Source: Candidatus Sulfopaludibacter sp. SbA3 (lineage in GTDB: Bacteria > Acidobacteriota > Vicinamibacteria > Vicinamibacterales > UBA2999). From it: DNA of 64,000 bases. The notes under the pieces were generated by a model. That model saw nothing but the letters and a program-made list of their open reading frames with translations. It did no database searches and was not told the DNA's origin. The first letter of the stretch is position 1. Every line of letters starts with the position of its first letter. Both the position numbers and the translations under genes were made by a program. This document shows positions 15,466 to 64,000 of this stretch, one piece after another. The stretch is taken from assembly GCA_945903265.1 (NCBI GenBank), contig CAMDNQ010000016.1:6075-70074 (forward strand), given 5' to 3'.

Positions 15466-17706
15466 TCAATCGACGCGAACGGGTATGACGCGCGTCTCGA
15501 ACAGGCGGAGTCCCAGCTCGCGCTGGTCTGTCGTGCCCTCCGCTTCGCCCGGCCGGTACACGGGCGTTGTCTCGATCGCAATGGCCCCTGCCGCTCGTGC
15601 GATGTCGGCCGCCGGAACCCGCACCGTCCATTCAAAGTCGGCGGCGGGCTGAAACCGGGCGATGACGCGGCCCCCTGCGGTCACCTGTACATCGGGCGGA
15701 GCATCGAAATACCGTAGGGGCGACTCCCCGCGCAGGACGACGTCGACGTCGGACACCGGGCCTTTGACGCGAATGAGCGCGCGACCGCTGGTCCAGCGCC
15801 AGCCCCGCCCGGTTGCCGGGTCATATTCCTCCTCGTGCCAGCCCTCGCCGAACGCGGAGATCATCCGGCCGGCTGGCTGGACGTCGAACTGACGGACGGC
15901 GACTGCCGCCGGGCGCCGATCACTCCGTGCCTGGCGTGAGGCAATCGTGAGGCGTGCGTAGTCGCCCGCGCCCGCGAGACCATCTGGCAACTCCATGAAA
16001 CGCAGAAAGTTACGGTCGGCGACCGTGACCGTCCATCGATCCCGCACCACCCCGTCGATCGCGAGCTCGAAGTCGGCCGGCGAGTCGCCTGTATCCCCAA
16101 GATGCCGCCCTCCAACCACGAGGTGCATCGGCTCGGCGCGCCGGCGCACCCACGCTTCAATCGGCTGACGATCGGGGCCCCTGGCGGTCGCGAGCGCAAG
16201 GCCGCCGGTCTCCGGCGTCAGCGACCATCCCTCCGAGGCAAACCATCCGGGCGGGGCGAACCGGTACCAGTCCGCGCCCACCGGCCGGATGCCGCTGAAC
16301 TCGGGCCGGCCGTCGACCGCCCATCGATAGGAGACAGCGTCAAGGCGCGACTGCGGATCGATCAGGGCGAGATCGGTGCGGCGCGGGTCCGCCAGAAACC
16401 AGACCGGCCCGCGTCCGCCGGCCTTCCAGTAGTTCACCAGGCCCAGCCACTCGTGCAGCCGCGGCGGCTCCACAGCGGGAAGGCCCGTGTCCGCCACTTG
16501 CACAGCGCGCCAGACACTGTGGTGGGCATACACGGCCTGCGGCGGAGCGACGCGGGCGTACTCAACCGCGTCCGCCAGCGCCTGGAACGCTGGATGCGGC
16601 GCACGCGCGTACGCGATCGCATCCGGGACGGCGACGAGCAATCCCGCCACGACAACCGGCGCCGCGACCAACGGCGTCCATCGCGAGCCTGACGCGGCAT
16701 TCGCCGCAAGCCACGCGACAAGCGGCAGCGTCGGCAGCGCGTACCGCACGGTGATCGTTTCCTGAAACAGCAGGTGCAGCACCGCGTATGGCATGAAGGC
16801 GAGCGCGAACAGACCGAACGTTCTCGGCTGACGAACGGCGGCGAGCACGGCGCCGGCCACAGCCGCCACTGCGACGATTGCCGCGAGAGGCTGCGCCGCC
16901 CACGGCAGGACAAACGTTTCATACAGTGCGAAGGCCAGCCTCCGCGGCGTCGGCTCGAGCCAGAGCATGTTCACCCACGCGAAATCCTCGCCGGCCTGCG
17001 ATCCGAGCGCGAGGAGATATGCGTCGACGCCGCCGCTGTCCATGACCAGCGGCACGGCCCAGGCGAGCACTCCCGCGGCCGCCGCCGCAAGCGGCCGCCA
17101 GGGGAACCGCCGCTCGATCAGCACGAACGCGAACAGCGGCATCGTCAGCCACAGCGTCTGCACGCGAATGCCGGCGGCGAGACCGGCCAGCAGGCCGCCC
17201 GCCATCAGCGCCCGATTCTGCGTTCGGCCTGCCAGCATCAGCGCCTGCGCGGCGAGCGCGGCGGCAAGTCCGGGGAGATCGCTCATGGGACGAAGGCCGG
17301 AGATCCACATCAGCGGCGAGGCGGCAAAGATCGCCGCGGCCCACGGGATGGTGGCCCGCCGCTCCGGCGCAAGGACACGCAGGCAGACGAACGCGAACGC
17401 CACGATCGCGAGTGCGCCGCCTACCGCGGACAGCAGCGCCAGCGTCAGTGCCTCCGTCGCGCTCCGGTCGGCCGCTGGCAGCACGCCGTCGACCACGAAG
17501 AAGACGATGCGGCCGAGCGCGATGTAGACGGGTGCGCCCGGCGGATGCGGCTGGTGGCGCGACGGATCGAAGTCACGGAGGCCCAGCGCGAAGTTGATCG
17601 AGTCGTAATCTTCGAGCGAGGGTGCGAGGAACGGAAGGTGCGCCGCCAGGTATGCGGCGGCCAGGAAATAGATGCTCTTAGGCAGGCCGGAGACGGACAC
17701 CTTCAT
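15466..17706 (-). CDS. GT-C-fold (ArnT/PMT-like) membrane glycosyltransferase with a C-terminal soluble domain
   Basis: About 450 aa of polytopic membrane domain with an early acidic loop (SLEDYDSINFA), then about 290 aa soluble. Family assignment is by architecture only. Confidence 0.45.
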   Translation of the reverse strand: MKVSVSGLPKSIYFLAAAYLAAHLPFLAPSLEDYDSINFALGLRDFDPSRHQPHPPGAPVYIALGRIVFFVVDGVLPAADRSATEALTLALLSAVGGALAIVAFAFVCLRVLAPERRATIPWAAAIFAASPLMWISGLRPMSDLPGLAAALAAQALMLAGRTQNRALMAGGLLAGLAAGIRVQTLWLTMPLFAFVLIERRFPWRPLAAAAAGVLAWAVPLVMDSGGVDAYLLALGSQAGEDFAWVNMLWLEPTPRRLAFALYETFVLPWAAQPLAAIVAVAAVAGAVLAAVRQPRTFGLFALAFMPYAVLHLLFQETITVRYALPTLPLVAWLAANAASGSRWTPLVAAPVVVAGLLVAVPDAIAYARAPHPAFQALADAVEYARVAPPQAVYAHHSVWRAVQVADTGLPAVEPPRLHEWLGLVNYWKAGGRGPVWFLADPRRTDLALIDPQSRLDAVSYRWAVDGRPEFSGIRPVGADWYRFAPPGWFASEGWSLTPETGGLALATARGPDRQPIEAWVRRRAEPMHLVVGGRHLGDTGDSPADFELAIDGVVRDRWTVTVADRNFLRFMELPDGLAGAGDYARLTIASRQARSDRRPAAVAVRQFDVQPAGRMISAFGEGWHEEEYDPATGRGWRWTSGRALIRVKGPVSDVDVVLRGESPLRYFDAPPDVQVTAGGRVIARFQPAADFEWTVRVPAADIARAAGAIAIETTPVYRPGEAEGTTDQRELGLRLFETRVIPVRVD

Positions 17707-18562
17707 TCAGGCTGCCCATCCTATATCCCTGCAGGTCGATTGTGACGTGCTGGTACCCGAGCGCCCGGAGCTCGCTGACAATCCGCTCGCGCACATCCGG
17801 CTCCAGCGCCCGCGCGATTTCGTCGCGGCCGATCTCGAGCCGCGCCAGTGCCTGCCCCGCCGCAGCCTCTGACGAAGGCGCGTCGTGGTGGCGGACGCGG
17901 CACACGCGGAAGCCCATTTCCCGCAGCACGGTTTCCGCCTGCTCAATCGTCCGCAGCTTCTCGGGCGTCACTTCGGAATGATACGGAATCCGCGACGACA
18001 GGCAGGCCGATGCAGGCTCGTCCCACGTCGGCAGGCCGGCCTGCTTCGACAGCGCGCGAATGTCGTCTTTGGTGAGGTCGGCTTCGTCCAGAGGGCTTCT
18101 GACGCCGAACTCCCGGGCGGCCTTCCGGCCCGGCCGGTAATCGGCGCGGTCATCGGCGTTGCTCCCGTCGACGATCACCGGAATGCCGCGCTCCGCGGCG
18201 ACGGATGACAGGACGGTATAGAGCTCGTGCTTGCAGTGGTAGCAGCGATCGACGGGGTTCGCGCGGTACTCGGCGCGCTCCATTTCGCCGGTGCCGACGA
18301 ACTCGTGCCGCAGTCCGAACTCACGCGCGATGCGCAGCGCGAGCTGCCGATGATGGTCGGGATAGCTGGGACTTTCCGCGGTGATGCACTGGGCCGCGGG
18401 CCCGAGGATGCGGGTTGCGGCCCAGGCGAGATAGGCGCTGTCGACGCCGCCGCTGAAGGCGACGATGACGGAGTCGAAGGAGCCGATGACGTCGAGGAGA
18501 CGCTGCTCGCGTGCCGCGAGCGTGTTACGCGTCCTCTTCTTCGTCGACTTCTTCTTCATCTT
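17678..18562 (-). CDS. larE: ATP-dependent sacrificial sulfur transferase LarE / PP-loop ATPase (TIGR00268-like)
   Basis: VAFSGGVDSAYLA PP-loop and a conserved C..C...... Cys region. The nearest usable start is ATG 18562, which overlaps the upstream acidic-tail gene by 38 nt. Start is uncertain. Confidence 0.7.
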   Translation of the reverse strand, partial: KMKKKSTKKRTRNTLAAREQRLLDVIGSFDSVIVAFSGGVDSAYLAWAATRILGPAAQCITAESPSYPDHHRQLALRIAREFGLRHEFVGTGEMERAEYRANPVDRCYHCKHELYTVLSSVAAERGIPVIVDGSNADDRADYRPGRKAAREFGVRSPLDEADLTKDDIRALSKQAGLPTWDEPASACLSSRIPYHSEVTPEKLRTIEQAETVLREMGFRVCRVRHHDAPSSEAAAGQALARLEIGRDEIARALEPDVRERIVSELRALGYQHVTIDLQGYRMGSLNEGVRLRPA

Positions 18563-18773
18563 CGACGAGAGTCTCGTCGACGTCCTCTTCCTCGTCTTCT
18601 TCGTCCTCGTCTTCGTCGTCGTCGTCGTCGAGATCGTCGTCATCGGCGGCGTCGAGCTGATCGGCGCCGTTCATCACGAGCGTCTTTCCGCATTCGGGAC
18701 AGCTCAATTCGTCACCCTCCTCGTTCTCGGTGGTGTCGATCTCGTCGAATTCACATTCGGGGCAGATAGCCAT
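18525..18773 (-). CDS. small zinc-ribbon protein with a roughly 40-residue poly-Asp/Glu tail
   Basis: Sequence is MAICPECEFDEI...ELSCPECGKTL followed by DDDDLDDDDDEDEDEEDEEEDVDETLVEDEEEVDEEEDA. Two CPEC knuckles. Start at the internal ATG 18773. Confidence 0.55.
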   Translation of the reverse strand: MAICPECEFDEIDTTENEEGDELSCPECGKTLVMNGADQLDAADDDDLDDDDDEDEDEEDEEEDVDETLVEDEEEVDEEEDA

Positions 18774-35874: not shown

Positions 35875-36822
35875 CTACGGCACTGGCGTCAGGGGCGGCT
35901 GTCCCGTCACGACGGCTATGGCGTTGCGGGCCGCCAAGTCCGCCATGGCTGTCCGCGTCTCCATCGTCGCGCTGCCCAGATGCGGCGCCAGCACGACGTT
36001 CTCCATCGTCATCAACTCGGCGTTGATCTCGGGCTCCCGCTCGTACACGTCCAGCGCCGCGCCGGCAATGAGATGGTTCTTGAGGGCCCACGCGAGCGCC
36101 GCTTCGTCGACCACCGGCCCGCGCGTCGTGTTGATCAGAAAAGCCGTTCGCTTCATTCGGGCCAGCTCCGGCTGTCCGATGAGGTGCTTTGTCTCCGGGG
36201 TGAGCGGCACGTGCAGCGAGACGACATCGGACGTCGACAGGAGCCGATCCAGCGGCATGCCGCCCGACCGTGTCGTGTGCACGACCGTCATCCCGAATGC
36301 CTCCGCGCGCGTGCCAACCGCGCGGCCGATGCGGCCGGGGCCGACGATGCCCAGCTGTCGCCCGCCAAGCTGCATCCCGAGCAGTTGATCCAGCGCCCAG
36401 CCTTTCCAGGCGCCCCGCCGGACCATGCGCTCCCCTTCGCCGAGGCGCCGCGTGACCGCGAGGATCAGCGCCATCGTGAAGTCGGCCGTGGCGTCGGTCA
36501 GGACATCAGGGGTATTGGTCACGATGATCCCGCGGGCGCGCGCCGCCGCGACGTCGATGTTGTTGTAGCCGACGCCCACATTCGCAATGACCCGAAGATC
36601 CGTCGCGGCGTCAATTACGGCGCGATCGATGGCTTCCGTGACGGTCGACACGAGCGCCTGCTTGCCGGCAATGCGCGCGACAAGCTCGTCGTGGGGCATC
36701 GCACCTTCGCCGTCGAAGCGGTCGACATCGCACGCCGCGTCGAGCCTCGTCATCACGGACGAAGGGAGCTTGCGCGTCAGCAGGAGGGAGGGTTTAGTGT
36801 CCGTACGACTTGCAGTAGCCAC
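35875..36822 (-). CDS. D-isomer-specific 2-hydroxyacid dehydrogenase (glyoxylate/hydroxypyruvate reductase-like)
   Basis: GIVGPGRIGRAV NAD motif and a catalytic R/E/H arrangement (..NT.RG..VDE.AL, ..PH.GSAT). The GTG start lies 29 nt inside the upstream small gene. Confidence 0.85.
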   Translation of the reverse strand: MATASRTDTKPSLLLTRKLPSSVMTRLDAACDVDRFDGEGAMPHDELVARIAGKQALVSTVTEAIDRAVIDAATDLRVIANVGVGYNNIDVAAARARGIIVTNTPDVLTDATADFTMALILAVTRRLGEGERMVRRGAWKGWALDQLLGMQLGGRQLGIVGPGRIGRAVGTRAEAFGMTVVHTTRSGGMPLDRLLSTSDVVSLHVPLTPETKHLIGQPELARMKRTAFLINTTRGPVVDEAALAWALKNHLIAGAALDVYEREPEINAELMTMENVVLAPHLGSATMETRTAMADLAARNAIAVVTGQPPLTPVP

Positions 36823-37018
36823 AGTGATTGCACATGACGGCCGGCTCGATCACGCAGGGACCGTCCTCCGCCGCGCCGTCGGTCAGCGTGGAGAACATGC
36901 CGTGGCTGGCGTGCAGGCGCAGTGACGCCACCGGCGGGTGGACGTGGGCGCGTGTCGAAGGGCCCATCTGCCTGGCGATGGCGTCGCGCACGATCGCCCG
37001 CAGCTGATCGTCGTTCAT
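36794..37018 (-). CDS. 74-aa Cys-rich protein with an amphipathic N-terminal helix (BMC-associated)
   Basis: Sequence is MNDDQLRAIVRDAIARQM...CVIEPAVMCNHCGYCKSYGH. ATGA overlap with the BMC-P stop, and its 3' end overlaps the dehydrogenase start. Confidence 0.6.
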   Translation of the reverse strand: MNDDQLRAIVRDAIARQMGPSTRAHVHPPVASLRLHASHGMFSTLTDGAAEDGPCVIEPAVMCNHCGYCKSYGH

Positions 37019-37287
37019 TCGCTGATGTCCACGGTGTCGATGATGCCCACGACAGCCGCATCCACCGGCGCAAACTTCCGGCCCAGTGCCTCGCCCGCCG
37101 CGCGGCCTTCCATGACGACCAGCACCTTTTCATCGACACCCGCGCCGAGCGCGTCGACGGCGAGGAGCGCCGGTCCGCGCGGCTTGTCGTCCATCGTGAG
37201 CGGCTGCACCAGGAGCAGTTTGGCGCCCTCGAACTTTCTGTGCTTCTGGGTGGCGACGACCGTGCCGATCACGCGGGCGATCTGCAT
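37015..37287 (-). CDS. BMC-P pentameric vertex protein (EutN/CcmL family), copy 1
   Basis: MQIARVIGTVVATQK...LVAVDALGAG..E.VLV..G, the PF03319-type pattern. Confidence 0.9.
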   Translation of the reverse strand: MQIARVIGTVVATQKHRKFEGAKLLLVQPLTMDDKPRGPALLAVDALGAGVDEKVLVVMEGRAAGEALGRKFAPVDAAVVGIIDTVDISE

Positions 37288-37553
37288 CAACCGAGATCCC
37301 AGCGATCGACGATACCGACGATGCCGGCGTCCGTCGGGACCTCTGTCGGGTAGAACGGAAAGCTGGCTTCCTTGCCTCGCACGAAAAACACGGTCTCGCC
37401 GATCCCCGCGCCGGCCGAATCGACGGCCACGAGTGTGCGTCCCGCCGGCGATCCGTCCGCCGTGATCGGCTGCAGGACGAGCAGCTTCATGCCATGGAGA
37501 TTCTCATCCTTGCGCGTGGCAATGACGTCGCCGATGACTCTGGCGAGCTGCAT
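37287..37553 (-). CDS. BMC-P pentameric vertex protein (EutN/CcmL family), copy 2
   Basis: MQLARVIGDVIATRKDENLHGMKLLVLQP...VAVDSAGAG.GE.V. The internal ATG at 37553 lies 1 nt after the copy-3 stop. Confidence 0.88.
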   Translation of the reverse strand: MQLARVIGDVIATRKDENLHGMKLLVLQPITADGSPAGRTLVAVDSAGAGIGETVFFVRGKEASFPFYPTEVPTDAGIVGIVDRWDLG

Positions 37554-37554
37554 G

Positions 37555-37830
37555 TCAGTTGCCGCCGGGCACGTCGATCGTGTCGATGATGCCGACGATC
37601 GCGGCATCCACGGGACAGTCCTTGAGGCCGGCCGCCATACGCGCCGAGCTGCCGCTGACGATGAGCACCGTCTCGCCGACGCCGGCGTCGACGGTGTCAA
37701 TGGCGACGAGATAGTTGCCTTCGCTTTTGCCGTGGGGGTCGATCGGACGGGCCACCATCAGCTTGCTGCTGAGGAGCCGTGGATCCTTGCGGGTAGCGAC
37801 AACGGTCCCGACGATACGGGCCAGGATCAT
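37555..37830 (-). CDS. BMC-P pentameric vertex protein (EutN/CcmL family), copy 3
   Basis: MILARIVGTVVATRKDPRL...VAIDTVDAGVGETVLIV. Confidence 0.9.
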   Translation of the reverse strand: MILARIVGTVVATRKDPRLLSSKLMVARPIDPHGKSEGNYLVAIDTVDAGVGETVLIVSGSSARMAAGLKDCPVDAAIVGIIDTIDVPGGN

Positions 37831-37848
37831 CGGGGACCGTAACCTCCG

Positions 37849-38148
37849 TTAGGCCTTGGCCGCGCCGGACGAGGCCTTGCCGATGGGGAGCGCGTCTTCG
37901 AGGTTCGCGTGCGGCCGCGGGATGACGTGCACCGACACGAGCTCACCGACCCGGCGGGCAGCGGCAGCGCCGGCATCAGTGGCGGCCTTGACGGCCGCGA
38001 CGTCGCCGCGGACGATCGCGGTGACGTACCCGGCGCCAATCTTTTCCCAGCCGATCAGCGTGACCTTCGCGGCTTTGACCATGGCATCGGCCGCCTCAAT
38101 CATGGCGACCAGCCCTTTGGTCTCGATCATTCCCAGCGCCTCTCCCAT
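37849..38148 (-). CDS. BMC-H hexameric shell protein (PduA/EutM-like, PF00936)
   Basis: [28 protein letters not shown]......[21 protein letters not shown], the canonical BMC domain. Confidence 0.93.
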
Positions 38149-38161
38149 TCGGTCCTCGCTT

Positions 38162-39007
38162 CTAATCCTTCAGGGTCTTGACGGCATCCGCGATGAGCGC
38201 CGTCAGTTCGGCGTATGTTAGCCGAATTTCGCCGTCCCTGCTCGCCCGCGCGAGGGCGTCATCCGGCACCAGCCGGCGAGCGGACTCTGGCGATTCGAGC
38301 ACCTGGCACAGCACTTCATCGCCCGTCACGTCGTTGGGATCGGCGCAGAGCGGCGCCGGCGACGGAATCCCGTAGAAACCGCGGAGGCCCTGGAGCCGCT
38401 CGACTTCATCGCGCGAAATCAGATTCTCGCGGCCAAGCAGGCGCGCCACGAGGCTGATGTTCGCAAAGTGCTCGATGGTTTCCATCTTGTAATACGCGCT
38501 CAGCACGTCCGTCCCGCACGTCACGGCGCCATGGTTCGCGAGCAGCATTCCGTCGTGTGCCTTGATGTACTTCCGCACGGCGTCGGGCAGCTCCCTCGTC
38601 GAGGGCGTTCCGTATTCCGCGATGGGGATGCTGCCGAGCGTCGTAATGACTTCCGCGAGTACGGCTCTCGTCAGCGGAATGCCCGCAACCGCAAAGCCCG
38701 TCGCGACAGGGGGATGCGCGTGGACGACCGCGTTCACGTCCGGCCGGTTGCGATAGATCTCGAGATGCATCGGAAGCTCGGTCGACGGATCGCGATCGCC
38801 GGCGATCTTGTTGCCGTCGAAGTCGACGATCACCATCATGTCGGGCGTCATGAAACCCTTCGAGACGCTCTTCGGTGTGGTGACCAGCCGTTTCTCGTCG
38901 AGCCGTGCGCTGATGTTGCCGTCGTTCGAGGCGATGAACGAGCGGGCGTACAGACGGCGGCCGGCCTCGACGATATCGGCGCGGATCTGTTCCTCGACTC
39001 GGGTCAT
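38162..39007 (-). CDS. class II aldolase/adducin-family enzyme with a C-terminal encapsulation-peptide-like extension
   Basis: Aldolase_II motifs ([21 protein letters not shown]). A roughly 65-aa tail ends in the amphipathic [25 protein letters not shown] overlap with the YHS gene stop. Confidence 0.88.
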
Positions 39008-39255
39008 GGCTGTGCGAACTTGGCCTTGCACGCTTCGGAGCAGAAGTAGTGCGTCGTGCCCGCGGCGGTCGCCGACAGTGCTGCGCGGGCGGGCACGTAG
39101 GTCCCGCAGACGGGATCACGCACGAGCTTGACGGCCGGAGTGGGACCTCCGCTTTCGCGCGGCGATCGGGCGGCTTCGATCACTGAATCCACCAATCGCC
39201 AGAACATCCGCGCGATGATGATGAGCAGGATGGCGAGAAGGATGAACCTGATCAT
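39004..39255 (-). CDS. membrane-anchored YHS/TRASH-domain protein
   Basis: N-terminal TM segment (FILLAILLIIIARMFW), then VCGTYV......HYFCSEACK.KF, a YHS-type metal-binding motif. Confidence 0.7.
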   Translation of the reverse strand: MIRFILLAILLIIIARMFWRLVDSVIEAARSPRESGGPTPAVKLVRDPVCGTYVPARAALSATAAGTTHYFCSEACKAKFAQP

Positions 39256-39928: not shown

Positions 39929-40696
39929 TTATGACACGGTCAGCGTCAGCTGAAACCACTCGATCAGGGACCGGACAAGGTCCGGATCGCGCGACAGGAG
40001 CACCGTGCCGTGCGCAGGGGTTGTCGACCAGCGCATCTGCCTCGGACCGGACGCATCCTGAGCCAGCGTCCTGACAGAGCGGGCGGCATAGGGGTCCTGC
40101 AGGCTGGCCATGAGCAGCGCCGGACGCGCGCCGTACTGGGCCAGCGCCGGTTCGATCCCGACCCCCCGGTAGTCCAGCGAGGGCGACACCAGCGCGAGCG
40201 ATCGCACCGCAGGATTGGTCGCAGCCGCCACGGCTGCGAGATTGGCGCCCAGCGAGGCGCCTGCCACGCCAATCGCCGCCGGATTCACCTCTCCCGGTCT
40301 CACGGTGAGGTACGCCACGGCCGCGTCCACGACCGCCGGCCAGCCGGCGAGTTCGGCCGGGTCCGCAGTGGCCGTCGACGGCAGGTCAATCGCGAGAGCG
40401 GTGATGTTCGTGTCGGCGAAACGCTGCGCCACCGCCTGCCAGTCGTCTTTCGTACGGCCCAGCATCGGAACGAGAACGACGGCCGGCGCGGGTCGTTCAC
40501 CGGCGTCGAACATCAGGCCGGCGACGGTACGTCCATCGCTCGTGCGCAACGTCACTCCGCGGCCCGCCGCATCGACGGGGGGTAACGGAAACAACGCGGC
40601 CGCGACGAGAACTCCCAACGCCCAAAGACCAACGCCCAAAGGGACTCTGGGCGACGCATTGGGAGTTGGACGTTGGGCGTTAGGCGTTGATGTCAT
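39929..40696 (-). CDS. secreted alpha/beta hydrolase (dienelactone-hydrolase-like)
   Basis: Signal peptide, nucleophile elbow GASLGA, about 250 aa. ATG at 40696 is 4 nt after the pdxJ stop. Confidence 0.65.
   Translation of the reverse strand: MTSTPNAQRPTPNASPRVPLGVGLWALGVLVAAALFPLPPVDAAGRGVTLRTSDGRTVAGLMFDAGERPAPAVVLVPMLGRTKDDWQAVAQRFADTNITALAIDLPSTATADPAELAGWPAVVDAAVAYLTVRPGEVNPAAIGVAGASLGANLAAVAAATNPAVRSLALVSPSLDYRGVGIEPALAQYGARPALLMASLQDPYAARSVRTLAQDASGPRQMRWSTTPAHGTVLLSRDPDLVRSLIEWFQLTLTVS
40611..40692. repeat. inverted arrays of a CAACGCCCAAAG word inside the 5' end of the hydrolase gene
   Basis: ACTCCCAACGCCCAAAGACCAACGCCCAAAGGG ... TGGGAGTTGGACGTTGGGCGTTAGGCGTTG. Pairing is possible in several registers. 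Confidence 0.7.
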
Positions 40697-40700
40697 GGCC

Positions 40701-41435
40701 TCACGACAGTACGGCCAGATAGTTCCTGACGCTCTGTTCAAGGCCCACGAACAGCGCCTCGCTGATCAGCGCATGGCCGATCGAGACTTCATCCAGATGA
40801 GGCAATGTGCGGAAGAGCACGAGGTTCTCGAGGTCGAGATCGTGTCCCGCGTTGATGCCCACGCCGAGTGAATGCGCCATCTCCGCAGCCGCCGCATAGG
40901 TGTCGAACGACTGGCGGGCGCTGGCGGCGTCCCGTTCCCACGCACGGGCGAACGGCTCCGTATACAGCTCGACCCGGTCCGCGCCGACCGCCGCCGCCCA
41001 TCGGATTGCCTGTTCGTCCGGATCCACGAACACGCTGACGCGCACGCCCGCCGCCTTGAGACGGGCAACGACACGCTCAATCTCTGCGCGCGGCGTCCCT
41101 GGCGCCCAGCCGGCCTGACTGGTAATCTCGCCGGGCTTCACCGGAACGAGCGTGCATTGATCGGGGCGAACGTCTGCGACGAGGTCGAGCAGATCGGGCC
41201 GCGGATCGCCTTCGATGTTGTATTCGACACGCCCCTTCAGAGGCTCGAGATACGCGGCGATCTCGCGAACGTCGCGCGCGGTGATGTGCCTGGCGTCGGC
41301 ACGCGGATGCACGGTAATCCCTGGAGCGCCGGTCTCGACACAGACGCGCACGGCGTCCATGACCGACGGGTTCGCGCCGCCGCGCGAGTTGCGCACGGTC
41401 GCAACTTTATTCACGTTGACGGAGAGCCTGATCAC
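40701..41435 (-). CDS. pdxJ: pyridoxine 5'-phosphate synthase
   Basis: LSVNVNKVATVRN.RG and ITVHPR.D.RHI motifs. The GTG start overlaps the glmM stop (GTGA). The upstream part of the 475-aa track ORF is discarded. Confidence 0.9.
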   Translation of the reverse strand: MIRLSVNVNKVATVRNSRGGANPSVMDAVRVCVETGAPGITVHPRADARHITARDVREIAAYLEPLKGRVEYNIEGDPRPDLLDLVADVRPDQCTLVPVKPGEITSQAGWAPGTPRAEIERVVARLKAAGVRVSVFVDPDEQAIRWAAAVGADRVELYTEPFARAWERDAASARQSFDTYAAAAEMAHSLGVGINAGHDLDLENLVLFRTLPHLDEVSIGHALISEALFVGLEQSVRNYLAVLS

Positions 41436-51437: not shown

Positions 51438-52580
51438 ATGCGGGAACGCCTCAAGCAGGTCTTTCAGGCGCCGGCCGATCCGGATGTCGCGACCGCGCGA
51501 ATCAGACATTCCCCAGCCGACATCTCGCTGGTGATTCTCGCGGTGTGCGGCCTGATGGCGGTTCTCTACTGGGCGCAGGAGGTCTTCATCCCCATCGTGC
51601 TCAGCATCCTCATCAGCTATGCACTCGAGCCGCTGGTCCGTGGACTGACCCGGCTATGGGTGCCGCGCCTGATCGCGTCGGGGCTCGTCGTGCTCGCCTT
51701 TACCGGTGCGCTGGCGTACGGCGCGTACGCGTTCTCCGATGACGTGGCGCGGCTCGTCGCGGAAATTCCGGAAGCCGCGGTCCAGTTGCGGCAGACGCTC
51801 CGCAGCGACGAACCTGGTGCGATCCAGAAGGTCCAGGAGGCGGCGCGCGAGCTTCAGCGCACCGCGGACGAAGCGGCCGGACCGAATCCGGCTCCTCGCG
51901 GCGTGCAGCGCGTCCAGATCGAACAGCCGGCCATTGACCTGCGGGCGTACGTGTCGTGGGGATCGGCGGGCGCGATTGCCTTCGCCGGGCAGGCCACGCT
52001 CATCTTTTTCTTCGTGTTCTTCCTGCTGGCGTCGGGCGATCTCTTCAAGCGCAAATTCGTGAGCATCGCAGGACCGTCGCTCGCCGCGAAGAGAGTGACG
52101 GTCCAGGTCCTGGACGACATCAACCGACAGATCGAGCGCTTCCTCATCGTTCGTGTCGTCACGAGCGTCGTCGTCGCGCTGGCGACGTGGGGAGCCTTCG
52201 TATTCGTCGGACTGCACCAGGCACTCCTCTTTGGCATGGCGGCCGGCGTTTTTAACAGCGTTCCGTATTTCGGACCGGTGATCGTCGCCGCGGGAACTTT
52301 CATCGTGGCGTTTATTCAGTTCGATTCGATCACCATGGCGTCCTACGTGGCCGGCATCTCACTGGCGATTACCGCGCTCGAGGGCTGGCTGCTGACGCCG
52401 TGGCTCACGAGCAGGACGGCGCGCACCAATGAGATCGCGGTGTTCGTGGGACTGATCTTCTGGTCGTTCGTGTGGGGAATCTGGGGAACACTGCTGGCCG
52501 TGCCGATGCTCGTGGCGTTCAAAGCCTTCTGCGATCACATCGAAGGCCTCAAGCCCGTCGGGGAGCTGCTCGGCGAGTAG
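51438..52580 (+). CDS. AI-2E family transporter (PerM-like)
   Basis: Eight-TM profile with a conserved C-terminal ...GL.G..LAVP... region. Confidence 0.8.
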   Translation: MRERLKQVFQAPADPDVATARIRHSPADISLVILAVCGLMAVLYWAQEVFIPIVLSILISYALEPLVRGLTRLWVPRLIASGLVVLAFTGALAYGAYAFSDDVARLVAEIPEAAVQLRQTLRSDEPGAIQKVQEAARELQRTADEAAGPNPAPRGVQRVQIEQPAIDLRAYVSWGSAGAIAFAGQATLIFFFVFFLLASGDLFKRKFVSIAGPSLAAKRVTVQVLDDINRQIERFLIVRVVTSVVVALATWGAFVFVGLHQALLFGMAAGVFNSVPYFGPVIVAAGTFIVAFIQFDSITMASYVAGISLAITALEGWLLTPWLTSRTARTNEIAVFVGLIFWSFVWGIWGTLLAVPMLVAFKAFCDHIEGLKPVGELLGE

Positions 52581-53532
52581 ATTTCGCGGGCGCCTCGGGC
52601 TGCAGGAACGACTGCAGATCAATCCGGCCGCGCGCTGCAAGGAGCGGCTTCCAGAGATCGCCCAGTTCTTCGACGCGCGCCGGCATGTTGTCGAGTCGAA
52701 AGTCCTCCGTCCGGGCCCCCTGCGCCACTTCGTCCCACGTCAGCGGCGCCGACACCGTGGCGAGCGGCGTCGGACGAACTGAGTACACGCTGGCGAGCGT
52801 GCTCCCCCACCGATTCTGGTTGTAGTCGACCAGTACGCGGCCCGCCGGCCGCTTGGCCACCTTATACGCCGACGTCATCAGCGCCGGATGCCGGCCCGCG
52901 AGCTCGATGGCCAGCGCTTTGGCGAAGGTCCAGACCGCCTTCTGCACCGGACCACGGACGATAGGCACGTAGACGTGCATGCCTTTTGAACCGCTGGTCT
53001 TCACCAGCGGCCGCATGCCGAGCGTTTCGAGCGCCTCACGGACGATCAACGAAGACTCACGGACGCGCTCGAACGGCGCGCCGCCCGGGTCCAGATCGAA
53101 ATGCACGTAGTCCGGCCGATCGATGTCGTCACATCGGGCGTACCACTGATTGAGGTCGATGCAACCGAGGTTGATGACCCAGAGGAGGGACGGCAGATCG
53201 TCGATGACCGGGAAATCGATGATGTTGCCTGAGTCGTGCTCGATCGCGTGGGTGCGAATCCATTCGGGCCGCGGCACCGGCGCGCGCTTCATGAAGAAGA
53301 ACGGACCTGAGGCGCCGTTCGGATACCGCTTCATCACCATCGCCCGGTCGCGAATATGCGGCAACAGCGCGGCCGAGACGTCGGCGTAGTACTGAATCAG
53401 CGCGCCCTTCGTAATCCCCCGCTCCGGCCAGAACGGCTTGCGGAGGTTCGTCAGGCGCACCTCGCGGCCATTCACCGTGAGGGTGGCGTTATCGACGTCG
53501 TCGGGAATCTGAACGCGCGGGCGGCGCGGCAT
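52549..53532 (-). CDS. stand-alone LigD polymerase (primase-polymerase, AEP) domain protein
   Basis: AEP motifs VHFDLDP and TSGSKGMHVYVP, about 327 aa. No ligase or nuclease domain is attached. Confidence 0.85.
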   Translation of the reverse strand: MPRRPRVQIPDDVDNATLTVNGREVRLTNLRKPFWPERGITKGALIQYYADVSAALLPHIRDRAMVMKRYPNGASGPFFFMKRAPVPRPEWIRTHAIEHDSGNIIDFPVIDDLPSLLWVINLGCIDLNQWYARCDDIDRPDYVHFDLDPGGAPFERVRESSLIVREALETLGMRPLVKTSGSKGMHVYVPIVRGPVQKAVWTFAKALAIELAGRHPALMTSAYKVAKRPAGRVLVDYNQNRWGSTLASVYSVRPTPLATVSAPLTWDEVAQGARTEDFRLDNMPARVEELGDLWKPLLAARGRIDLQSFLQPEAPAKSTRRAAPRRA

Positions 53533-54193
53533 AGGCCGGTGTAGTGAGTGGTTCGAGTTTCGGGGGCCGCGACCCATGGCGGACGGCCCCTTCAATTGGA
53601 ACATAGTCCAGTTCGAGACCCGCGGACACGCAGCGCAGCATCAGGCCGCCGCGGCTCATGTCGCCTCTGCCGACGAAATGGATCGGGAACGTGAGCCGGC
53701 GGCCGAAGATTGGCAGCAGCACGTCGACGTACTTCCCGGATGCCACGCTGCCGAGCAGGACCACCTCGCACTCCGGACCAATGGCGTCGAGAAGGGCGAC
53801 CGACGCATCCTCGAGCGGTCTCCGGTACTTCGGGTTACGGGCATCGACATCCGCGGCAGCGAAGTCCTGGATTGAGGCGACCGTCACAAGGGTATCCACG
53901 GCGCGCAATCCTGCGTTCGGCGTGATGACCAGCACGCCGCCGGCCGCGATCGGATCCGCAGGATCTGGAGGCCTGGCAAAGCGGCGGGCATACGCGAGCT
54001 TTCCGCGAAAGTAGAGGCCGCTGACGAAACTGAATACGTCCCCGAGCGGCGCGCCCGTGCGGCTCTGGAGCGCTCTCGCCAGGTCGAATCCAGCGCGCGG
54101 CGACAACATCAGCTGTGCCCGCCGGCCGGAACAGTTCGCGGGTGAGAGCAGAAATATGCGGGAGGCTGCCGCCCTGGTCTTCCGCTTCGCCAT
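53489..54193 (-). CDS. conserved hypothetical protein (234 aa)
   Basis: Starts MAKRKTRAAASRIFLLSPANCSGRRA. TGATG overlap with the DUF4112 stop, and its 3' end overlaps the LigD-pol start by 44 nt. I recognise no family. Confidence 0.5.
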   Translation of the reverse strand: MAKRKTRAAASRIFLLSPANCSGRRAQLMLSPRAGFDLARALQSRTGAPLGDVFSFVSGLYFRGKLAYARRFARPPDPADPIAAGGVLVITPNAGLRAVDTLVTVASIQDFAAADVDARNPKYRRPLEDASVALLDAIGPECEVVLLGSVASGKYVDVLLPIFGRRLTFPIHFVGRGDMSRGGLMLRCVSAGLELDYVPIEGAVRHGSRPPKLEPLTTPAYAAPPARSDSRRRR

Positions 54194-54693
54194 CAGAAAA
54201 GACGCCCGCCAATCGCCGCCAGCGCCCAACCCGCTACGACGAACGGAATGGCGGCAACCGCGATCACGAGCAGCGTCAGGACCACGACGAACAACCAGTC
54301 TCCCGCCGACGCCCGATAGCCTTGTTCCGAGTGACGCTCCAGCAGCGCGAGATTCTTGAGGTTCGCCTTCCAGACAAAGTCGAAGAGATCTCCGAAGAGC
54401 GGCACGGCGCCGACGATCGCATCGATGGCGATGTTGAACAGCATCCGTATCTGGACGATCTTCGGGACGCCGAGGTCGTAGGCCTGCCACAGGATGCCGA
54501 GGCCGAAGATTGGCGAAATCAGGTCTCCGAGGCCGGGGACCAGACCCAGCACGGGATCGAGACCGACGCGATAGGACGTGCCGGGAACGGTGACCGCGGA
54601 GTCGAGAAACCGGGCGACGCGGCGAAGGACCTCGAGCCGTGCGAGTTGCGCCGCTGAAAGTGGTTGCGTCCGGGCAGCGCGGGGCGAGGCCAT
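54193..54693 (-). CDS. DUF4112 domain-containing membrane protein
   Basis: LD....VPGT..R.GLDP..GL.PG.GD and F..VWKAN..N..LL motifs. Start is either 54693 or 54750. Confidence 0.7.
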   Translation of the reverse strand: MASPRAARTQPLSAAQLARLEVLRRVARFLDSAVTVPGTSYRVGLDPVLGLVPGLGDLISPIFGLGILWQAYDLGVPKIVQIRMLFNIAIDAIVGAVPLFGDLFDFVWKANLKNLALLERHSEQGYRASAGDWLFVVVLTLLVIAVAAIPFVVAGWALAAIGGRLF

Positions 54694-60313: not shown

Positions 60314-61045
60314 CTAATCGCTGACCGCCAATTCTCCAGGAACGATCGGCCGCGTCCGGGGTAAGACGCCCCGGCGGGAGAGATGGGCGACGAACGCAAG
60401 AACACCCACGAACACCGCAAGCTTGATGGCGTCACTCGCGCGGCCCATCGGCAGCACCTTCCAGAGGAGCCACAGCACGGGCTGCGCGATCGTCACCGCC
60501 CAGACTGACCCATAGAAGTAGCGCCGCTCGTGCCCCTCTCCCTTGGTCGAGTGCTTCACTCGCGGCAGACGCCCGAACGCTCCCATGAGCCAGACTGTTC
60601 CGGCGATCGGAAAGTAGGCTGCCTCGTACATCTGCTTCAACCGCCACTCACCCGTCACGACCGCAAACGTCAGACCCGCGACGTTCAGCACGGCAAAGGC
60701 GACGACTTCACCCCAGGCGGTCGTGTAGCAGACGCGGCGGTACAGGGGATTGGGACGGTCCTCGGTAAACCGGATGATGTACGGCCGCGGCTCGCACCCG
60801 GGCAGACGGCCGCGAAGACCGGCAATCCCGGTGGCGGCCAGCACGATGCCAAGCCATCCGAGCAGCCGTGCATCGAATCCGCGCTCGAATAAGTCGAAGG
60901 TCAGCGGCCCGGGCGCGATGAAGAAGACGAAAATCCAGATCGGCCAGTGGTTGAACCGGTAATAGAGCTTGTTGCGATACCGGATTTGTCGATCGGTGTC
61001 GAACTCGATGTAGCGCGCATCTGTGCGCACGGACGCGTCAGGCAT
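60314..61045 (-). CDS. hypothetical polytopic membrane protein
   Basis: Five to six hydrophobic segments. I recognise no family. Lies 3 nt upstream of the methyltransferase pair. Confidence 0.5.
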   Translation of the reverse strand: MPDASVRTDARYIEFDTDRQIRYRNKLYYRFNHWPIWIFVFFIAPGPLTFDLFERGFDARLLGWLGIVLAATGIAGLRGRLPGCEPRPYIIRFTEDRPNPLYRRVCYTTAWGEVVAFAVLNVAGLTFAVVTGEWRLKQMYEAAYFPIAGTVWLMGAFGRLPRVKHSTKGEGHERRYFYGSVWAVTIAQPVLWLLWKVLPMGRASDAIKLAVFVGVLAFVAHLSRRGVLPRTRPIVPGELAVSD

Positions 61046-61112: not shown

Positions 61113-62015
61113 CTACGGGCCGCGGCGCTTCTTTTCGAGCTCCTCCAGTGTCCGCGGCCAATCGTCGTGCAGCAGACGCGAGAGCGATCGGTCCGCGAGC
61201 AGCTTTCCACCTGTCTGGCACTGCGCGCAGTAGTTCGCTTCATTCGACGCATACACAATCCGCTGCACCGGCGCGCCGCAATCCGGGCACGGCTGCCCGT
61301 ACCGCCCATGGACGGCCATCCCCTCGCGAAACGCGGTGACTTTCTCGGGAAACTCCCCGCCGGTTTCGGTTTGAAGCCGGGCGATCCATCCCGTCAACGT
61401 CAGGCGAGTGGCGTCGTACAGCCGGCGGACTTCCTCGTCGGTCATCGATTCCGTCTGCTTGAAAGGAGATAAGCGCGCGGCGTGCAGGATCTCGTCCGAG
61501 TAGGCATTGCCGATGCCGCTGAAGAGATGGGGGTCGGTCAGTGCGCGCTTCACGGTGTGGTTGTCGCGCTGAAGGACAGCCTGAAAACTCGCGAGATCGG
61601 CGTCGAGCACCTCCACGCCTCCGCGATCATGCTGGGCGAGCGCTCTCTCCCCGCGCACCAGATGCAGCGATGCCTGCCGCTTGCTTCCGGCTTCGGTGAG
61701 GATCAGCGCAGCACAATCGAAGTCCAGCGCAAAGAGGCCCACCCTGCCAGGGATCGGCGCACCGGTCGGCTTCCATCGGAAGCGTCCCGCGATCATGAGA
61801 TGAAACACGAGGAAGAGGTCGTCGTCGACAGCAAACACGATGCGTTTGCCCAGGCGCCTGAGGCCGGTCACGGTACGTCCCGCGATCGCCGCCAGCGGGG
61901 GGTCGACGGAACGAAGGAGGAATGGACTCGTCAGCCGGGTGCCGATGATCCGATGCCCGACGACGCGCGGCGTGAGCGCATGCAGGTAGAGAGTGATATC
62001 GGGGAGTTCGGGCAT
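61113..62015 (-). CDS. Fpg/Nei family DNA glycosylase
   Basis: N-terminal MPELPD (catalytic Pro2/Glu3), H2TH region and a C-terminal zinc finger CPDCG...CAQCQ. Confidence 0.85.
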   Translation of the reverse strand: MPELPDITLYLHALTPRVVGHRIIGTRLTSPFLLRSVDPPLAAIAGRTVTGLRRLGKRIVFAVDDDLFLVFHLMIAGRFRWKPTGAPIPGRVGLFALDFDCAALILTEAGSKRQASLHLVRGERALAQHDRGGVEVLDADLASFQAVLQRDNHTVKRALTDPHLFSGIGNAYSDEILHAARLSPFKQTESMTDEEVRRLYDATRLTLTGWIARLQTETGGEFPEKVTAFREGMAVHGRYGQPCPDCGAPVQRIVYASNEANYCAQCQTGGKLLADRSLSRLLHDDWPRTLEELEKKRRGP

Positions 62016-62062
62016 CGGAGTAGCATCGAATTCTGGCGGATTACAGCTGGCTGCGCTGGCGT

Positions 62063-62100
62063 ACAAAGAAAAAGCCCGTCGTGATTTCTCACAACGGGCT
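62063..62100 (-). terminator. rho-independent terminator reading leftward out of the AT-rich element
   Basis: Minus-sense AGCCCGT-tgtgagaaatcacg-ACGGGCT followed by TTTTTCTTTGT. Sits exactly at the composition break. Confidence 0.6.
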
Positions 62101-62134
62101 ACAAGAATAATCCAGGCAGCGACCTACACACGCA

Positions 62135-62492
62135 ATATCAAGTAAATACTGAATGAAAACTGGCACTATGTCATATGTTGTCCAGTTTTTGTCCGGTTAT
62201 GTCTCTAAACTGGCATAACTCGGTCACTTATACCGTTTGTCTACTCTGCGCGTGCGTTGGAACCCTCACAACCACTCCACGACGACATCTGTCACGCCCC
62301 TAATAGTGCGAGATAGTCGCTGAACTATGCCCTACACAGACGCCTGCCTGACCGCCTAAACACTGTCCAAAATACCTCTTTTAGGGGGGTATGTGAATAT
62401 CTCGATGAAACAGTATAAATATAACGATATCAAGTAGTTACAGGTATTATATGGGGCATTTGCGCTCTCGCAGCACACTTTTCACTTGATAT
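62135..62492. repeat. three copies of the 9-mer ATATCAAGT (two direct, one inverted)
   Basis: Copies at 62135-62143 and 62427-62435 (direct) and 62484-62492 (inverted, overlapping the -35 box). Confidence 0.7.
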
Positions 62493-62514
62493 CACTACCC
62501 ATTATTAGTATAAT
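62486..62514 (+). promoter_or_regulatory. near-consensus sigma70-type promoter upstream of the integrase
   Basis: TTGATA (62486-62491), a 17-nt spacer, then TATAAT (62509-62514). A second TATAAT lies at 62520-62525. Confidence 0.55.
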
Positions 62515-62600
62515 ATGTGTATAATGATGGTTCAAAAACGCGAGAACGCAAATACGCGAAATAAAAGCGAATCTCTTGCGGGTTTGGACGGGAGCACCCG

Positions 62601-63248
62601 ATGACTGGACTCGCCAAACAAGCGAAAACCCTGACCGACACGCAGGTGCGCGCACTTGTCCGTTATGCGGAAACCGAAACCCGGTTCCCCGAGCGGAACC
62701 GCGTCGTCGTCCTCCTCAGTTTTAAAGCGGGACTCCGCGTCAAGGAGATCGCTGGGTTGACGTGGGGGATGGTGACGGACGCAGAGGGAACCCTGACCGA
62801 CGCGATCCGACTGACGAATGTCGCGTCCAAGGGGAAACGCGGAGGACGCGAGATCTACCTGAACCCCGAACTGCGTGACGCACTCGTCGTCCTGCTGGAA
62901 CACGAGCAGAAATGGAGCAGGACGACCCCGACGCGGGGAACCGCTGACGGATATGTCGTCACCCTCGCCAAAGGGAATACCGACCTCCTCTCCCGTGCGC
63001 GTTCCGTCCAGTTCCTGTTCAACGGGAAAGGGAAACAACTCGGGTGGTATGAGCAGTTGGGATACGCGGGTGCGACGAGCCACAGCGGACGACGAACGTT
63101 CCTCACCAAAGCGTCACGGATGATCCACTCGCTTGGGGGAAACCTCAAGGATGTTCAGCGACTTGCTGGACACGCAAGCTTGACGACGACGCAACGCTAT
63201 TTTGACGAGAACGAGCACGCAAAAGCGGAGTTGATGAAAAGGATTTAG
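62601..63248 (+). CDS. tyrosine-type site-specific recombinase/integrase (short, catalytic-domain-only form)
   Basis: Catalytic signature R (AGLRVKEI), H-x-x-R (HSGRRTF), H (LAGHASL) and Y (TTQRY). 215 aa. Confidence 0.85.
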   Translation: MTGLAKQAKTLTDTQVRALVRYAETETRFPERNRVVVLLSFKAGLRVKEIAGLTWGMVTDAEGTLTDAIRLTNVASKGKRGGREIYLNPELRDALVVLLEHEQKWSRTTPTRGTADGYVVTLAKGNTDLLSRARSVQFLFNGKGKQLGWYEQLGYAGATSHSGRRTFLTKASRMIHSLGGNLKDVQRLAGHASLTTTQRYFDENEHAKAELMKRI

Positions 63249-63275
63249 CGACAGTAAGCAACACCCTGAACACCG

Positions 63276-63478
63276 AGGGACGACGGATACACCCGTCCCT
63301 GTGCTGCCGAACACCAGCAGCACGAACGAGCACTGGAAACACTCCCCGCTGTAGTCCCTGTCGCTGAACGCGAGCGACACACTCTCCGCAGTTCCCCCAG
63401 TCGGTATTCCACCGTTCCCGCAGGAATGCGTAAGACCTGCGGACACTAAATAGTCGTCAGACACCGAACCTGTCGGTG
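63276..63478 (+). other. five consecutive 6-7-bp stem-loops in the integrase-downstream spacer
   Basis: Stems at 63276-82/63294-300, 63301-06/63318-23, 63360-65/63373-78, 63419-24/63436-41 and 63462-67/63473-78. Three of the loops are 11 nt. Confidence 0.5.
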
Positions 63479-63564
63479 CCTCTCGTGCCTGTCCTCAGCG
63501 GACGCCACGCGAGGTATGAGCGTAGTTCCTCAGCATTTCCGTTGATGCCCTATGCCTTTGGTGT

Positions 63565-64000
63565 ATGCGAATGAGCACAGAGAAACCAATGTCCCTCAGA
63601 GAACACGTGATGACACCTGATCCCCAGAGAACACAGAGAACACCAGAAGCCGACTGGATCAGAGAACTCTTTGACCACGACGAGCAGCACGGAGCGTCCT
63701 GGTATTGGGTGACCTTGATGCCCAAGACGACTGCCTATCCAACACTTTCAACCAAAGAACGCGATCGCTCAACCGCGACAGTGACTGATGCCGATCTGAT
63801 CCAGAACACCGCCAGACAGACAGTCCGCCTCGTCAAAACCGCGATCCACAACACCCTGACGGAGGTAGACCCGCGCCACTCTCGCAGCAACCCCGAACGC
63901 ACGGGAGCCAACGCGAGGATCGCTGTCCTGGTGGTGCCCGCCCTCGCCAAGCGAACGACGACGAGTTCAAAACGCGATGCCCGAGTGCTCCACTTTCACG
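63565..64000 (+). CDS. open-ended ORF of unknown function (at least 145 codons, no stop in the window)
   Basis: Hand translation: MRMSTEKPMSLREHVMTPDPQRTQRTPEADWIRELFDHDEQHGASWYWVTLMPKTT...ARIAVLVVPALAKRTTTSSKRDARVLHFH. Absent from the ORF track because it lacks a stop. Confidence 0.45.
   Translation, partial: MRMSTEKPMSLREHVMTPDPQRTQRTPEADWIRELFDHDEQHGASWYWVTLMPKTTAYPTLSTKERDRSTATVTDADLIQNTARQTVRLVKTAIHNTLTEVDPRHSRSNPERTGANARIAVLVVPALAKRTTTSSKRDARVLHFH

Follow-up and report, generated by a model that had tools for sequence, protein, structure and literature searches.

A probable main locus of an ACI-type bacterial microcompartment in a Vicinamibacterales-like acidobacterium

What kind of compartment is specified by a short operon that has shell genes and an aldolase but no aldehyde dehydrogenase (AldDH) beside them? 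The question is raised by eight minus-strand genes at 35875-39255 in a 64,000-nucleotide stretch of Candidatus Sulfopaludibacter sp. SbA3 DNA (GenBank assembly GCA_945903265.1, contig CAMDNQ010000016.1, forward-strand positions 6,075 to 70,074), the whole of which we call the window. A sequence-only reading of this DNA had offered a minimal organelle with unknown chemistry, a satellite of a locus elsewhere, or one of the sparsely characterised catalogue classes, Acidobacteria-specific ones among them. We conclude that this is very probably the main locus of a bacterial microcompartment (BMC) of the ACI type, an already known type, in a Vicinamibacterales-like acidobacterium.

Pfam searches and the open reading frames (ORFs) confirmed that all eight genes are present, in the order and at the coordinates first proposed. 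Pfam matches for seven of the eight were far beyond chance; the profiles that the sequence-only reading had suggested running (PF00936, PF03319 and PF00596) matched one, three and one gene. The features, in the direction of transcription, are these.

39004-39255, minus strand: YHS membrane protein, 83 aa, with one transmembrane helix (PF04945, 6e-10)
38162-39007 from an ATG, or to 39031 from a GTG start, minus strand: class II (FucA-like) aldolase, 281 aa (PF00596, 1e-49)
38165-38386, minus strand: C-terminal extension of the aldolase, residues 208-281 (from the alignment: conserved blocks, variable linker, terminal peptide)
38171-38230, minus strand: putative encapsulation peptide (EP) of the aldolase, residues 260-279 (conservation and hydrophobic pattern)
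37849-38148, minus strand: BMC-H, hexamer shell facet protein, 99 aa (PF00936, 2e-30)
37555-37830, minus strand: BMC-P paralogue 1 (P1), pentamer vertex protein, 91 aa (PF03319, 6e-32)
37287-37553, minus strand: BMC-P paralogue 2 (P2), 88 aa (PF03319, 8e-29)
37015-37287, minus strand: BMC-P paralogue 3 (P3), 90 aa (PF03319, 2e-30)
36794-37018, minus strand: Cys-rich protein, 74 aa (ORF without Pfam or NCBIfam match)
36968-37012, minus strand: EP-like helix of the 74-aa protein, residues 3-17 (predicted helix)
36797-36856, minus strand: C-terminal Cys/His knot of the 74-aa protein (C55-x7-C63-x-H65-C66-x2-C69-x4-H74)
35875-36822, minus strand: D-2-hydroxyacid dehydrogenase, 315 aa (2-Hacid_dh, PF00389, 1e-30, and 2-Hacid_dh_C, PF02826, 6e-53)

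The published catalogue of BMC loci (Sutter, Melnicki, Schulz, Woyke & Kerfeld 2021, Nat Commun 12:3809, with Supplementary Data 2; PMC8217296) describes an ACI type of 125 loci, exclusively from Acidobacteria and chiefly from subdivisions 4 and 6. It combines a PF00596 aldolase that bears an EP at its C-terminus and a PF00389/PF02826 dehydrogenase with BMC-H, a side-by-side BMC-P triplet and a very short protein of ~80 aa that has an N-terminal EP and conserved cysteines (PMC8217296). The ACI AldDH carries an EP and lies, consistently or in most ACI genomes, on a satellite locus, on account of which the type is counted among the AldDH-containing metabolosomes; satellites occasionally hold PduS/PduT or extra BMC-H/BMC-P (PMC8217296).

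Feature by feature, the locus matches that description, apart from a mismatch taken up below. There is a PF00596 aldolase with an EP-like C-terminal tail, although the structural backing of its helix is weak; a PF00389/PF02826 hydroxyacid dehydrogenase in the main locus; a side-by-side BMC-P triplet with one BMC-H that has standard interface motifs, PRPH included; and a 74-aa ORF with an EP-like N-terminus and conserved C-terminal cysteines. AldDH is absent from the main locus in both. The host, judged from its relatives, is acidobacterial, and we take its class, Vicinamibacteria, to be the Acidobacteria 'subdivision 6'. Thus the guess at an Acidobacteria-specific catalogue class proved right, and that class is ACI.

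For comparison we scanned one genome per species, which yielded at least 427 species-level genomes with a close relative of the aldolase, and compared the best 80 loci. Aldolase identity in these is 66-87% and the flanks are collinear. Nearly all are labelled Vicinamibacterales or Acidobacteriota, the phylum to which Vicinamibacterales belong. Gene order in the 80 is pdxJ-(hydrolase)-TPR-YHS-aldolase-BMC-H-P1-P2-P3-Cys-protein-dehydrogenase-nth-PPIase-DUF72. Presence was counted in loci long enough to judge, which for the BMC genes meant at least 3.3 kb downstream (n=65) and for the YHS gene gave n=74. BMC-H, P1-P3 and the Cys-protein were found in 65/65 loci, the dehydrogenase in 61/65 and the YHS gene in 65/74; the nine loci without YHS keep the shell genes.

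The 74-aa protein gave no Pfam, NCBIfam or PDB match, the best E-value in a PDB profile search of its family being 0.16. AlphaFold predicts a helix at residues 3-17 (pLDDT 80-92) and the remainder at low confidence. The N-terminus, MNDDQLRAIVRDAIARQM, closely parallels that of E. coli EutE, MNQQDIEQVVKAVLLKM. In the family the helix is followed by a variable linker of 20-80 aa and then by a C-terminal motif, C-x-IEP-x-V-x-C-x-H-C-G-Y-C-x-S-x-G-H; across 147 representatives from clustering at 50% identity, C55, C63, C66 and C69 each show conservation of 99% or more. The family comprises 269 representative clusters (50% identity), and the 150 listed are all of 183 aa or less. Two divergent members were looked up, and both adjoin BMC-P genes, with a BMC-H also present on one of the contigs. 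Two other identities were tried and rejected: that long family members are AldDH fusions (no enzyme fusion was seen among those inspected), and that the protein is the precursor of a ribosomally synthesized and post-translationally modified peptide (there is no maturase nearby, and the members looked up adjoin BMC-P genes).

The best solved relatives of the aldolase are fuculose-phosphate aldolases, 6BTD (2e-26) and 4C24, and their alignment stops at about residue 207 of 281, which defines the core as residues 1 to ~207. The C-terminal extension noticed in the sequence-only reading is there, at a length nearer 75 aa than the ~65 aa first given. Its tail was aligned across 78 species and 34 database homologues. 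Two blocks, PAPxC(221)AD and C(234)QVxEAP, contain the invariant C221 and C234; neither length nor sequence is constant in the linker from RLVP to the final block; and the end, EIRLTYxELTALIxDAVxxL, is nearly invariant (at least 90% conserved in the 78 species) and has no Pro or Gly. Hydrophobic residues stand at i, i+3, i+4, i+7, i+8 and i+11 (L268, L271, I272, A275, V276 and L279). By conservation and hydrophobic pattern, residues 260-279 are a putative encapsulation peptide. EPs were recognised here by the i/i+3/i+4 pattern and conservation, and a hydrophobic-moment ranking did not set them apart. Of the amphipathic helix first proposed for the tail, the amphipathic conserved end stands, whereas the helix (265-278) was seen only at low confidence in the AlphaFold model, which was built from a 34-sequence alignment and had a mean pLDDT of 42. 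The catalogue text available to us does not mention the C221/C234 blocks between aldolase core and EP.

The shell proteins are encoded by one BMC-H and three BMC-P genes. BMC-H shares 76% identity with E. coli EutM, and among 79 related loci its median identity is 95%. Of its interface motifs PRPH is present, while KAAK replaces the KAAN of the ACI BMC-H. The three BMC-P proteins are about 47-48% identical to one another and 38-45% to E. coli EutN, and their median identities to their own orthologues are 84% (P1), 74% (P2) and 76% (P3), so they are old, anciently diverged paralogues. In tblastn searches with EutM and EutN the only matches in the window were these four genes, and no other shell gene was found in it. 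The pentamer-to-hexamer gene ratio of 3:1, on which the sequence-only reading had drawn, is already known, since BMC-P triplets occur in the PVM (Planctomycetes/Verrucomicrobia), HO (Haliangium ochraceum), SPU, FRAG and ACI loci (PMC8217296).

Is an AldDH nevertheless close by? E. coli EutE, EutD, EutG, EutS and EutL gave no tblastn match in the window or in the 80 related loci, whose flanks extend to at most 10 kb; EutD-type PTA, Fe-ADH and BMC-T were thus not found there either. An aldehyde dehydrogenase profile built from EutE, AldA, GabD and BetB found nothing in the window. Across the 1.43 Mb of related loci it found only two fragments, L051 19825-20832 (+) and L060 20465-20833 (+), both truncated where the locus stops, at a distance of ~10 kb from the aldolase. 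That of L051 looks ALDH7-like, with 29-32% identity to GabD/AldA and 21% to EutE, and we consider it unlikely that either fragment, the one ALDH7-like and the other otherwise unrelated, is a BMC enzyme. Nor was AldDH found in 10 kb beyond the window start, or seen in the contexts of the exact BMC-H sequence. PF06130 and PF00871 are absent from the Pfam labels of the window genes, which cover nearly all sizeable ORFs and include no phosphotransacylase (PTAC), acyl kinase, BMC-T, sugar kinase/isomerase or regulator in the 64 kb. The original observation that AldDH, PTAC and BMC-T are missing nearby is thus upheld, and extends to the window and the flanks of 80 related loci. This absence fits a satellite arrangement. 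The relation is the reverse of the one first suggested, however: with the BMC-P triplet, BMC-H and the signature aldolase all encoded here, the catalogue's terms would make this the main locus and assign the satellite to the AldDH.

The same absence could be read as a self-sufficient minimal organelle without any AldDH, with the aldolase, the Cys4 protein and perhaps the dehydrogenase as cargo; its chemistry might be aldol condensation, or metal or Fe-S redox. In keeping with this, no PF00171-like gene lies within ~10 kb in 78/80 species or anywhere in the window, the two truncated ALDH fragments look ALDH7-like or unrelated in other ways, and conserved cysteines recur in the aldolase tail (C221 and C234), the small protein (four) and the YHS protein. 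The catalogue, however, places an EP-bearing AldDH on a satellite in most ACI genomes, and flank absence is what such a placement predicts; it also leaves the heading of the sequence-only reading, a compact organelle without an AldDH core, unsupported as a novelty. We regard the self-sufficient organelle as improbable.

How far do better characterised compartments account for the locus? It resembles Eut and Pdu in that BMC-H is like EutM, BMC-P is like EutN and the small-protein helix has the hydrophobic pattern of the EutE N-terminus. It differs in having no AldDH/PTAC/alcohol-dehydrogenase core beside the shell genes, the mark of a classical metabolosome, and no BMC-T, lyase or dehydratase signature enzyme, or regulator. 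With the HO and MIC3 types the likeness, by the catalogue's description, is one of aldolase affinity, and HO also has a BMC-P triplet; the HO main locus differs in having BMC-T and AldDH.

A class II aldolase as signature enzyme and a BMC-P triplet are also what the locus has in common with the PVM type, which handles fucose and rhamnose, and the same aldehyde-inside-shell logic probably holds in both. PVM loci carry an AldDH/PTAC/kinase core. One could therefore suppose a PVM or PVM-like metabolosome in which L-fuculose- or L-rhamnulose-1-phosphate is cleaved and lactaldehyde is handled as in Planctomycetes and Verrucomicrobia, the more so as the best solved relatives of the aldolase are annotated fuculose-phosphate aldolases and the catalogue itself proposes a carbohydrate-related role for ACI (PMC8217296). 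Yet AldDH, PTAC, kinase and lactaldehyde reductase are missing from the locus, with no such core within reach, and the host belongs to Acidobacteriota, not to Planctomycetes or Verrucomicrobia. The aldolase is distant as well. Its identity to E. coli FucA is only 28%, counterparts of FucA Tyr113 and Tyr209 are missing, and it reaches no NCBIfam equivalog cutoff, falling far short of those for FucA and RhaD. In the catalogue the ACI aldolase is nearest to the HO and MIC3 aldolases, not to PVM, and the ACI AldDH is nearest to that of MIC3 (PMC8217296). A PVM metabolosome is accordingly very improbable.

Several points weigh against the ACI assignment or against parts of its functional interpretation. 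In the catalogue the ACI main locus has three unknown-family proteins, one with three conserved histidines (PMC8217296), two of which, the three-His one included, were not recognised here: three conserved His were not found in the neighbouring YHS protein, the TPR protein or the ~240-270-aa hydrolase-like ORF (39929-40741). The missing proteins may mark a reduced sub-variant. The ACI small protein of the catalogue has three conserved cysteines, whereas four are near-invariant here, and a YHS membrane protein directly upstream, as in 65/74 of our loci, is a further difference. Helicity of the aldolase tail is not well supported by the structure prediction. Lacking the FucA Tyr113/Tyr209 counterparts and staying below the equivalog thresholds, the aldolase has a substrate that is a guess. 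The dehydrogenase has no EP and is absent from 4/65 loci, which makes its place inside the shell uncertain, and the AldDH step is taken from the catalogue's statement.

The aldolase is conserved where an active site would be. E77, H96, H98 and H159 are invariant and align with residues of FucA that we take, from general knowledge of that enzyme, to be its metal-ligand histidines and catalytic glutamate. For the dehydrogenase the best solved relative is the glyoxylate reductase 6BII (8e-78), and judged by sequence the enzyme is closest to the glyoxylate/hydroxypyruvate-reductase type. Because the alignment begins at residue 10, the enzyme has neither an N-terminal extension nor an encapsulation peptide. 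The GxGxxG motif is conserved, as are the residues expected for an Arg/Glu/His triad, which we presume to be catalytic as generally in D-2-hydroxyacid dehydrogenases. Gene callers start this gene at ATG 36753 (292 aa), which truncates the beginning of the catalytic domain; the GTG 36822 start (315 aa) is favoured because of the homology to glyoxylate reductases.

Gene spacing is tight. Overlaps of 4 nt join YHS to aldolase (ATGA), P2 to P3 and P3 to the Cys-protein; the Cys-protein and the dehydrogenase, counted from GTG 36822, overlap by 29 nt; and spacers between the remaining pairs are 18 nt or less. A promoter and terminator scan of the locus gave scores no better than those of shuffled sequence, so the operon boundaries are drawn from gene spacing only. 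At the distal end, some species have insertions between dehydrogenase and nth. A check of these for additional, conserved BMC genes showed heterogeneous content that lies mostly on the other strand; the functional unit is therefore taken to end at the dehydrogenase. At the other end, Cys50, Cys72 and Cys76 of the YHS protein are conserved, and its membership in the system is uncertain.

Could the locus instead be a decaying remnant, or its shell genes have been co-opted for a role outside a compartment? It has no regulator and no complete pathway, as such a remnant might. All its ORFs are intact, however, and their order and content are kept in 65/65 species; BMC-H is 95% identical where the flanking housekeeping genes have median identities of 56-75% in the related loci; and the EP-like segments are among the most conserved parts. 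Decay or co-option is hardly credible on these grounds.

The ACI locus recurs in one setting. Aldolase and BMC-H sequences identical to those here were seen each time in the same context: on an ENA metagenome contig of 132 kb, on further metagenome contigs and in the metagenome-assembled genome (MAG) GCA_947445835.1. Full-length aldolase homologues, tail included, are at least 83% identical among the matches listed, and the named ones are Acidobacteria or Vicinamibacterales. At 28162-49007 and in the related loci L005-L084 the BMC genes stand within a mostly co-directional housekeeping run (tilS, ftsH, folP, dacA, ybbR, glmM, pdxJ ... nth, PPIase, queE, queC) whose order is conserved across Vicinamibacterales. 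This embedding suggests vertical inheritance, not a mobile island.

Some of the related loci are titled as other groups: L007, L037, L043 and L056 as Acidimicrobiia, L022, L032, L057 and L083 as Bifidobacteriaceae, and L047 as Cyanobacteriota. Their flanks are collinear with the Vicinamibacterales loci and aldolase identity is 70-86%; they are probably mislabelled or mis-binned MAGs. In the long-read (MFD) MAG loci L009, L026, L061, L062, L066, L068 and L076, single-gene tblastn matches are split into adjacent frames, which look like sequencing indels rather than pseudogenes.

What would an ACI compartment with these parts do? In the mechanism that we propose, the aldolase and the small Cys4 protein would be brought into the lumen via their EP-like helices. 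The aldolase would cleave a ketose-1-phosphate to dihydroxyacetone phosphate and a short (hydroxy)aldehyde, for example lactaldehyde, glycolaldehyde or acetaldehyde. That aldehyde would be retained in the shell and oxidised by an EP-bearing AldDH, which the catalogue puts on a satellite locus. The dehydrogenase might take over the NAD(P)H recycling that an alcohol dehydrogenase usually performs, or process a 2-hydroxy- or 2-oxo-acid product, and the Cys-rich elements may bind a metal or Fe-S centre.

With their conserved cysteines, the aldolase tail, the Cys4 protein and the YHS protein lend the locus a metal or redox flavour, and the catalogue authors suspect a metal-binding role in ACI (PMC8217296). 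A stronger version would make the ACI system of Vicinamibacterales a vertically inherited, core-genome-embedded compartment with metal or Fe-S-centre chemistry, the centre being formed from the Cys4 protein and the aldolase-tail cysteines, possibly fed by the membrane YHS protein, and the chemistry perhaps independent of AldDH. If true, this would be a redox or metal chemistry in the lumen unlike the NAD/CoA recycling of known metabolosomes; we think it unlikely.

ACI compartments abound in the Acidobacteria of soil and groundwater, and close relatives of the aldolase include, besides the genomes counted above, thousands of near-identical proteins in metagenomes. The interest of the locus is what an abundant soil phylum encapsulates; the BMC type is known and not a discovery, and in the literature searched no later paper characterising ACI was found. 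The details added here are the strict housekeeping collinearity across the order, the four-Cys motif of the small protein and the invariant C221 and C234 in the tail of the aldolase.

Elsewhere in the window, Pfam labels of nearly all sizeable ORFs are housekeeping ones (ftsH, folP, glmM, pdxJ, nth, PPIase, queC/E/A, with pyrimidine synthesis, dxr, rseP and ruvAB besides). A phage-integrase-family ORF at 62601-63248 (+; PF00589, 9e-15) stands at a drop in GC content from ~0.65 to 0.55 (profile 62001-64000), and may be the border of an integrated element at the window end. The 746-aa ORF at 15466-17706 (-), which is coding-like with a third-position GC content (GC3) of 0.82, lacks a Pfam match, as do three ORFs of 243-333 aa at 17678-18643 (-), 53489-54490 (-) and 60314-61045 (-); that of 333 aa adjoins a LigD primase-polymerase gene (52549-53604).

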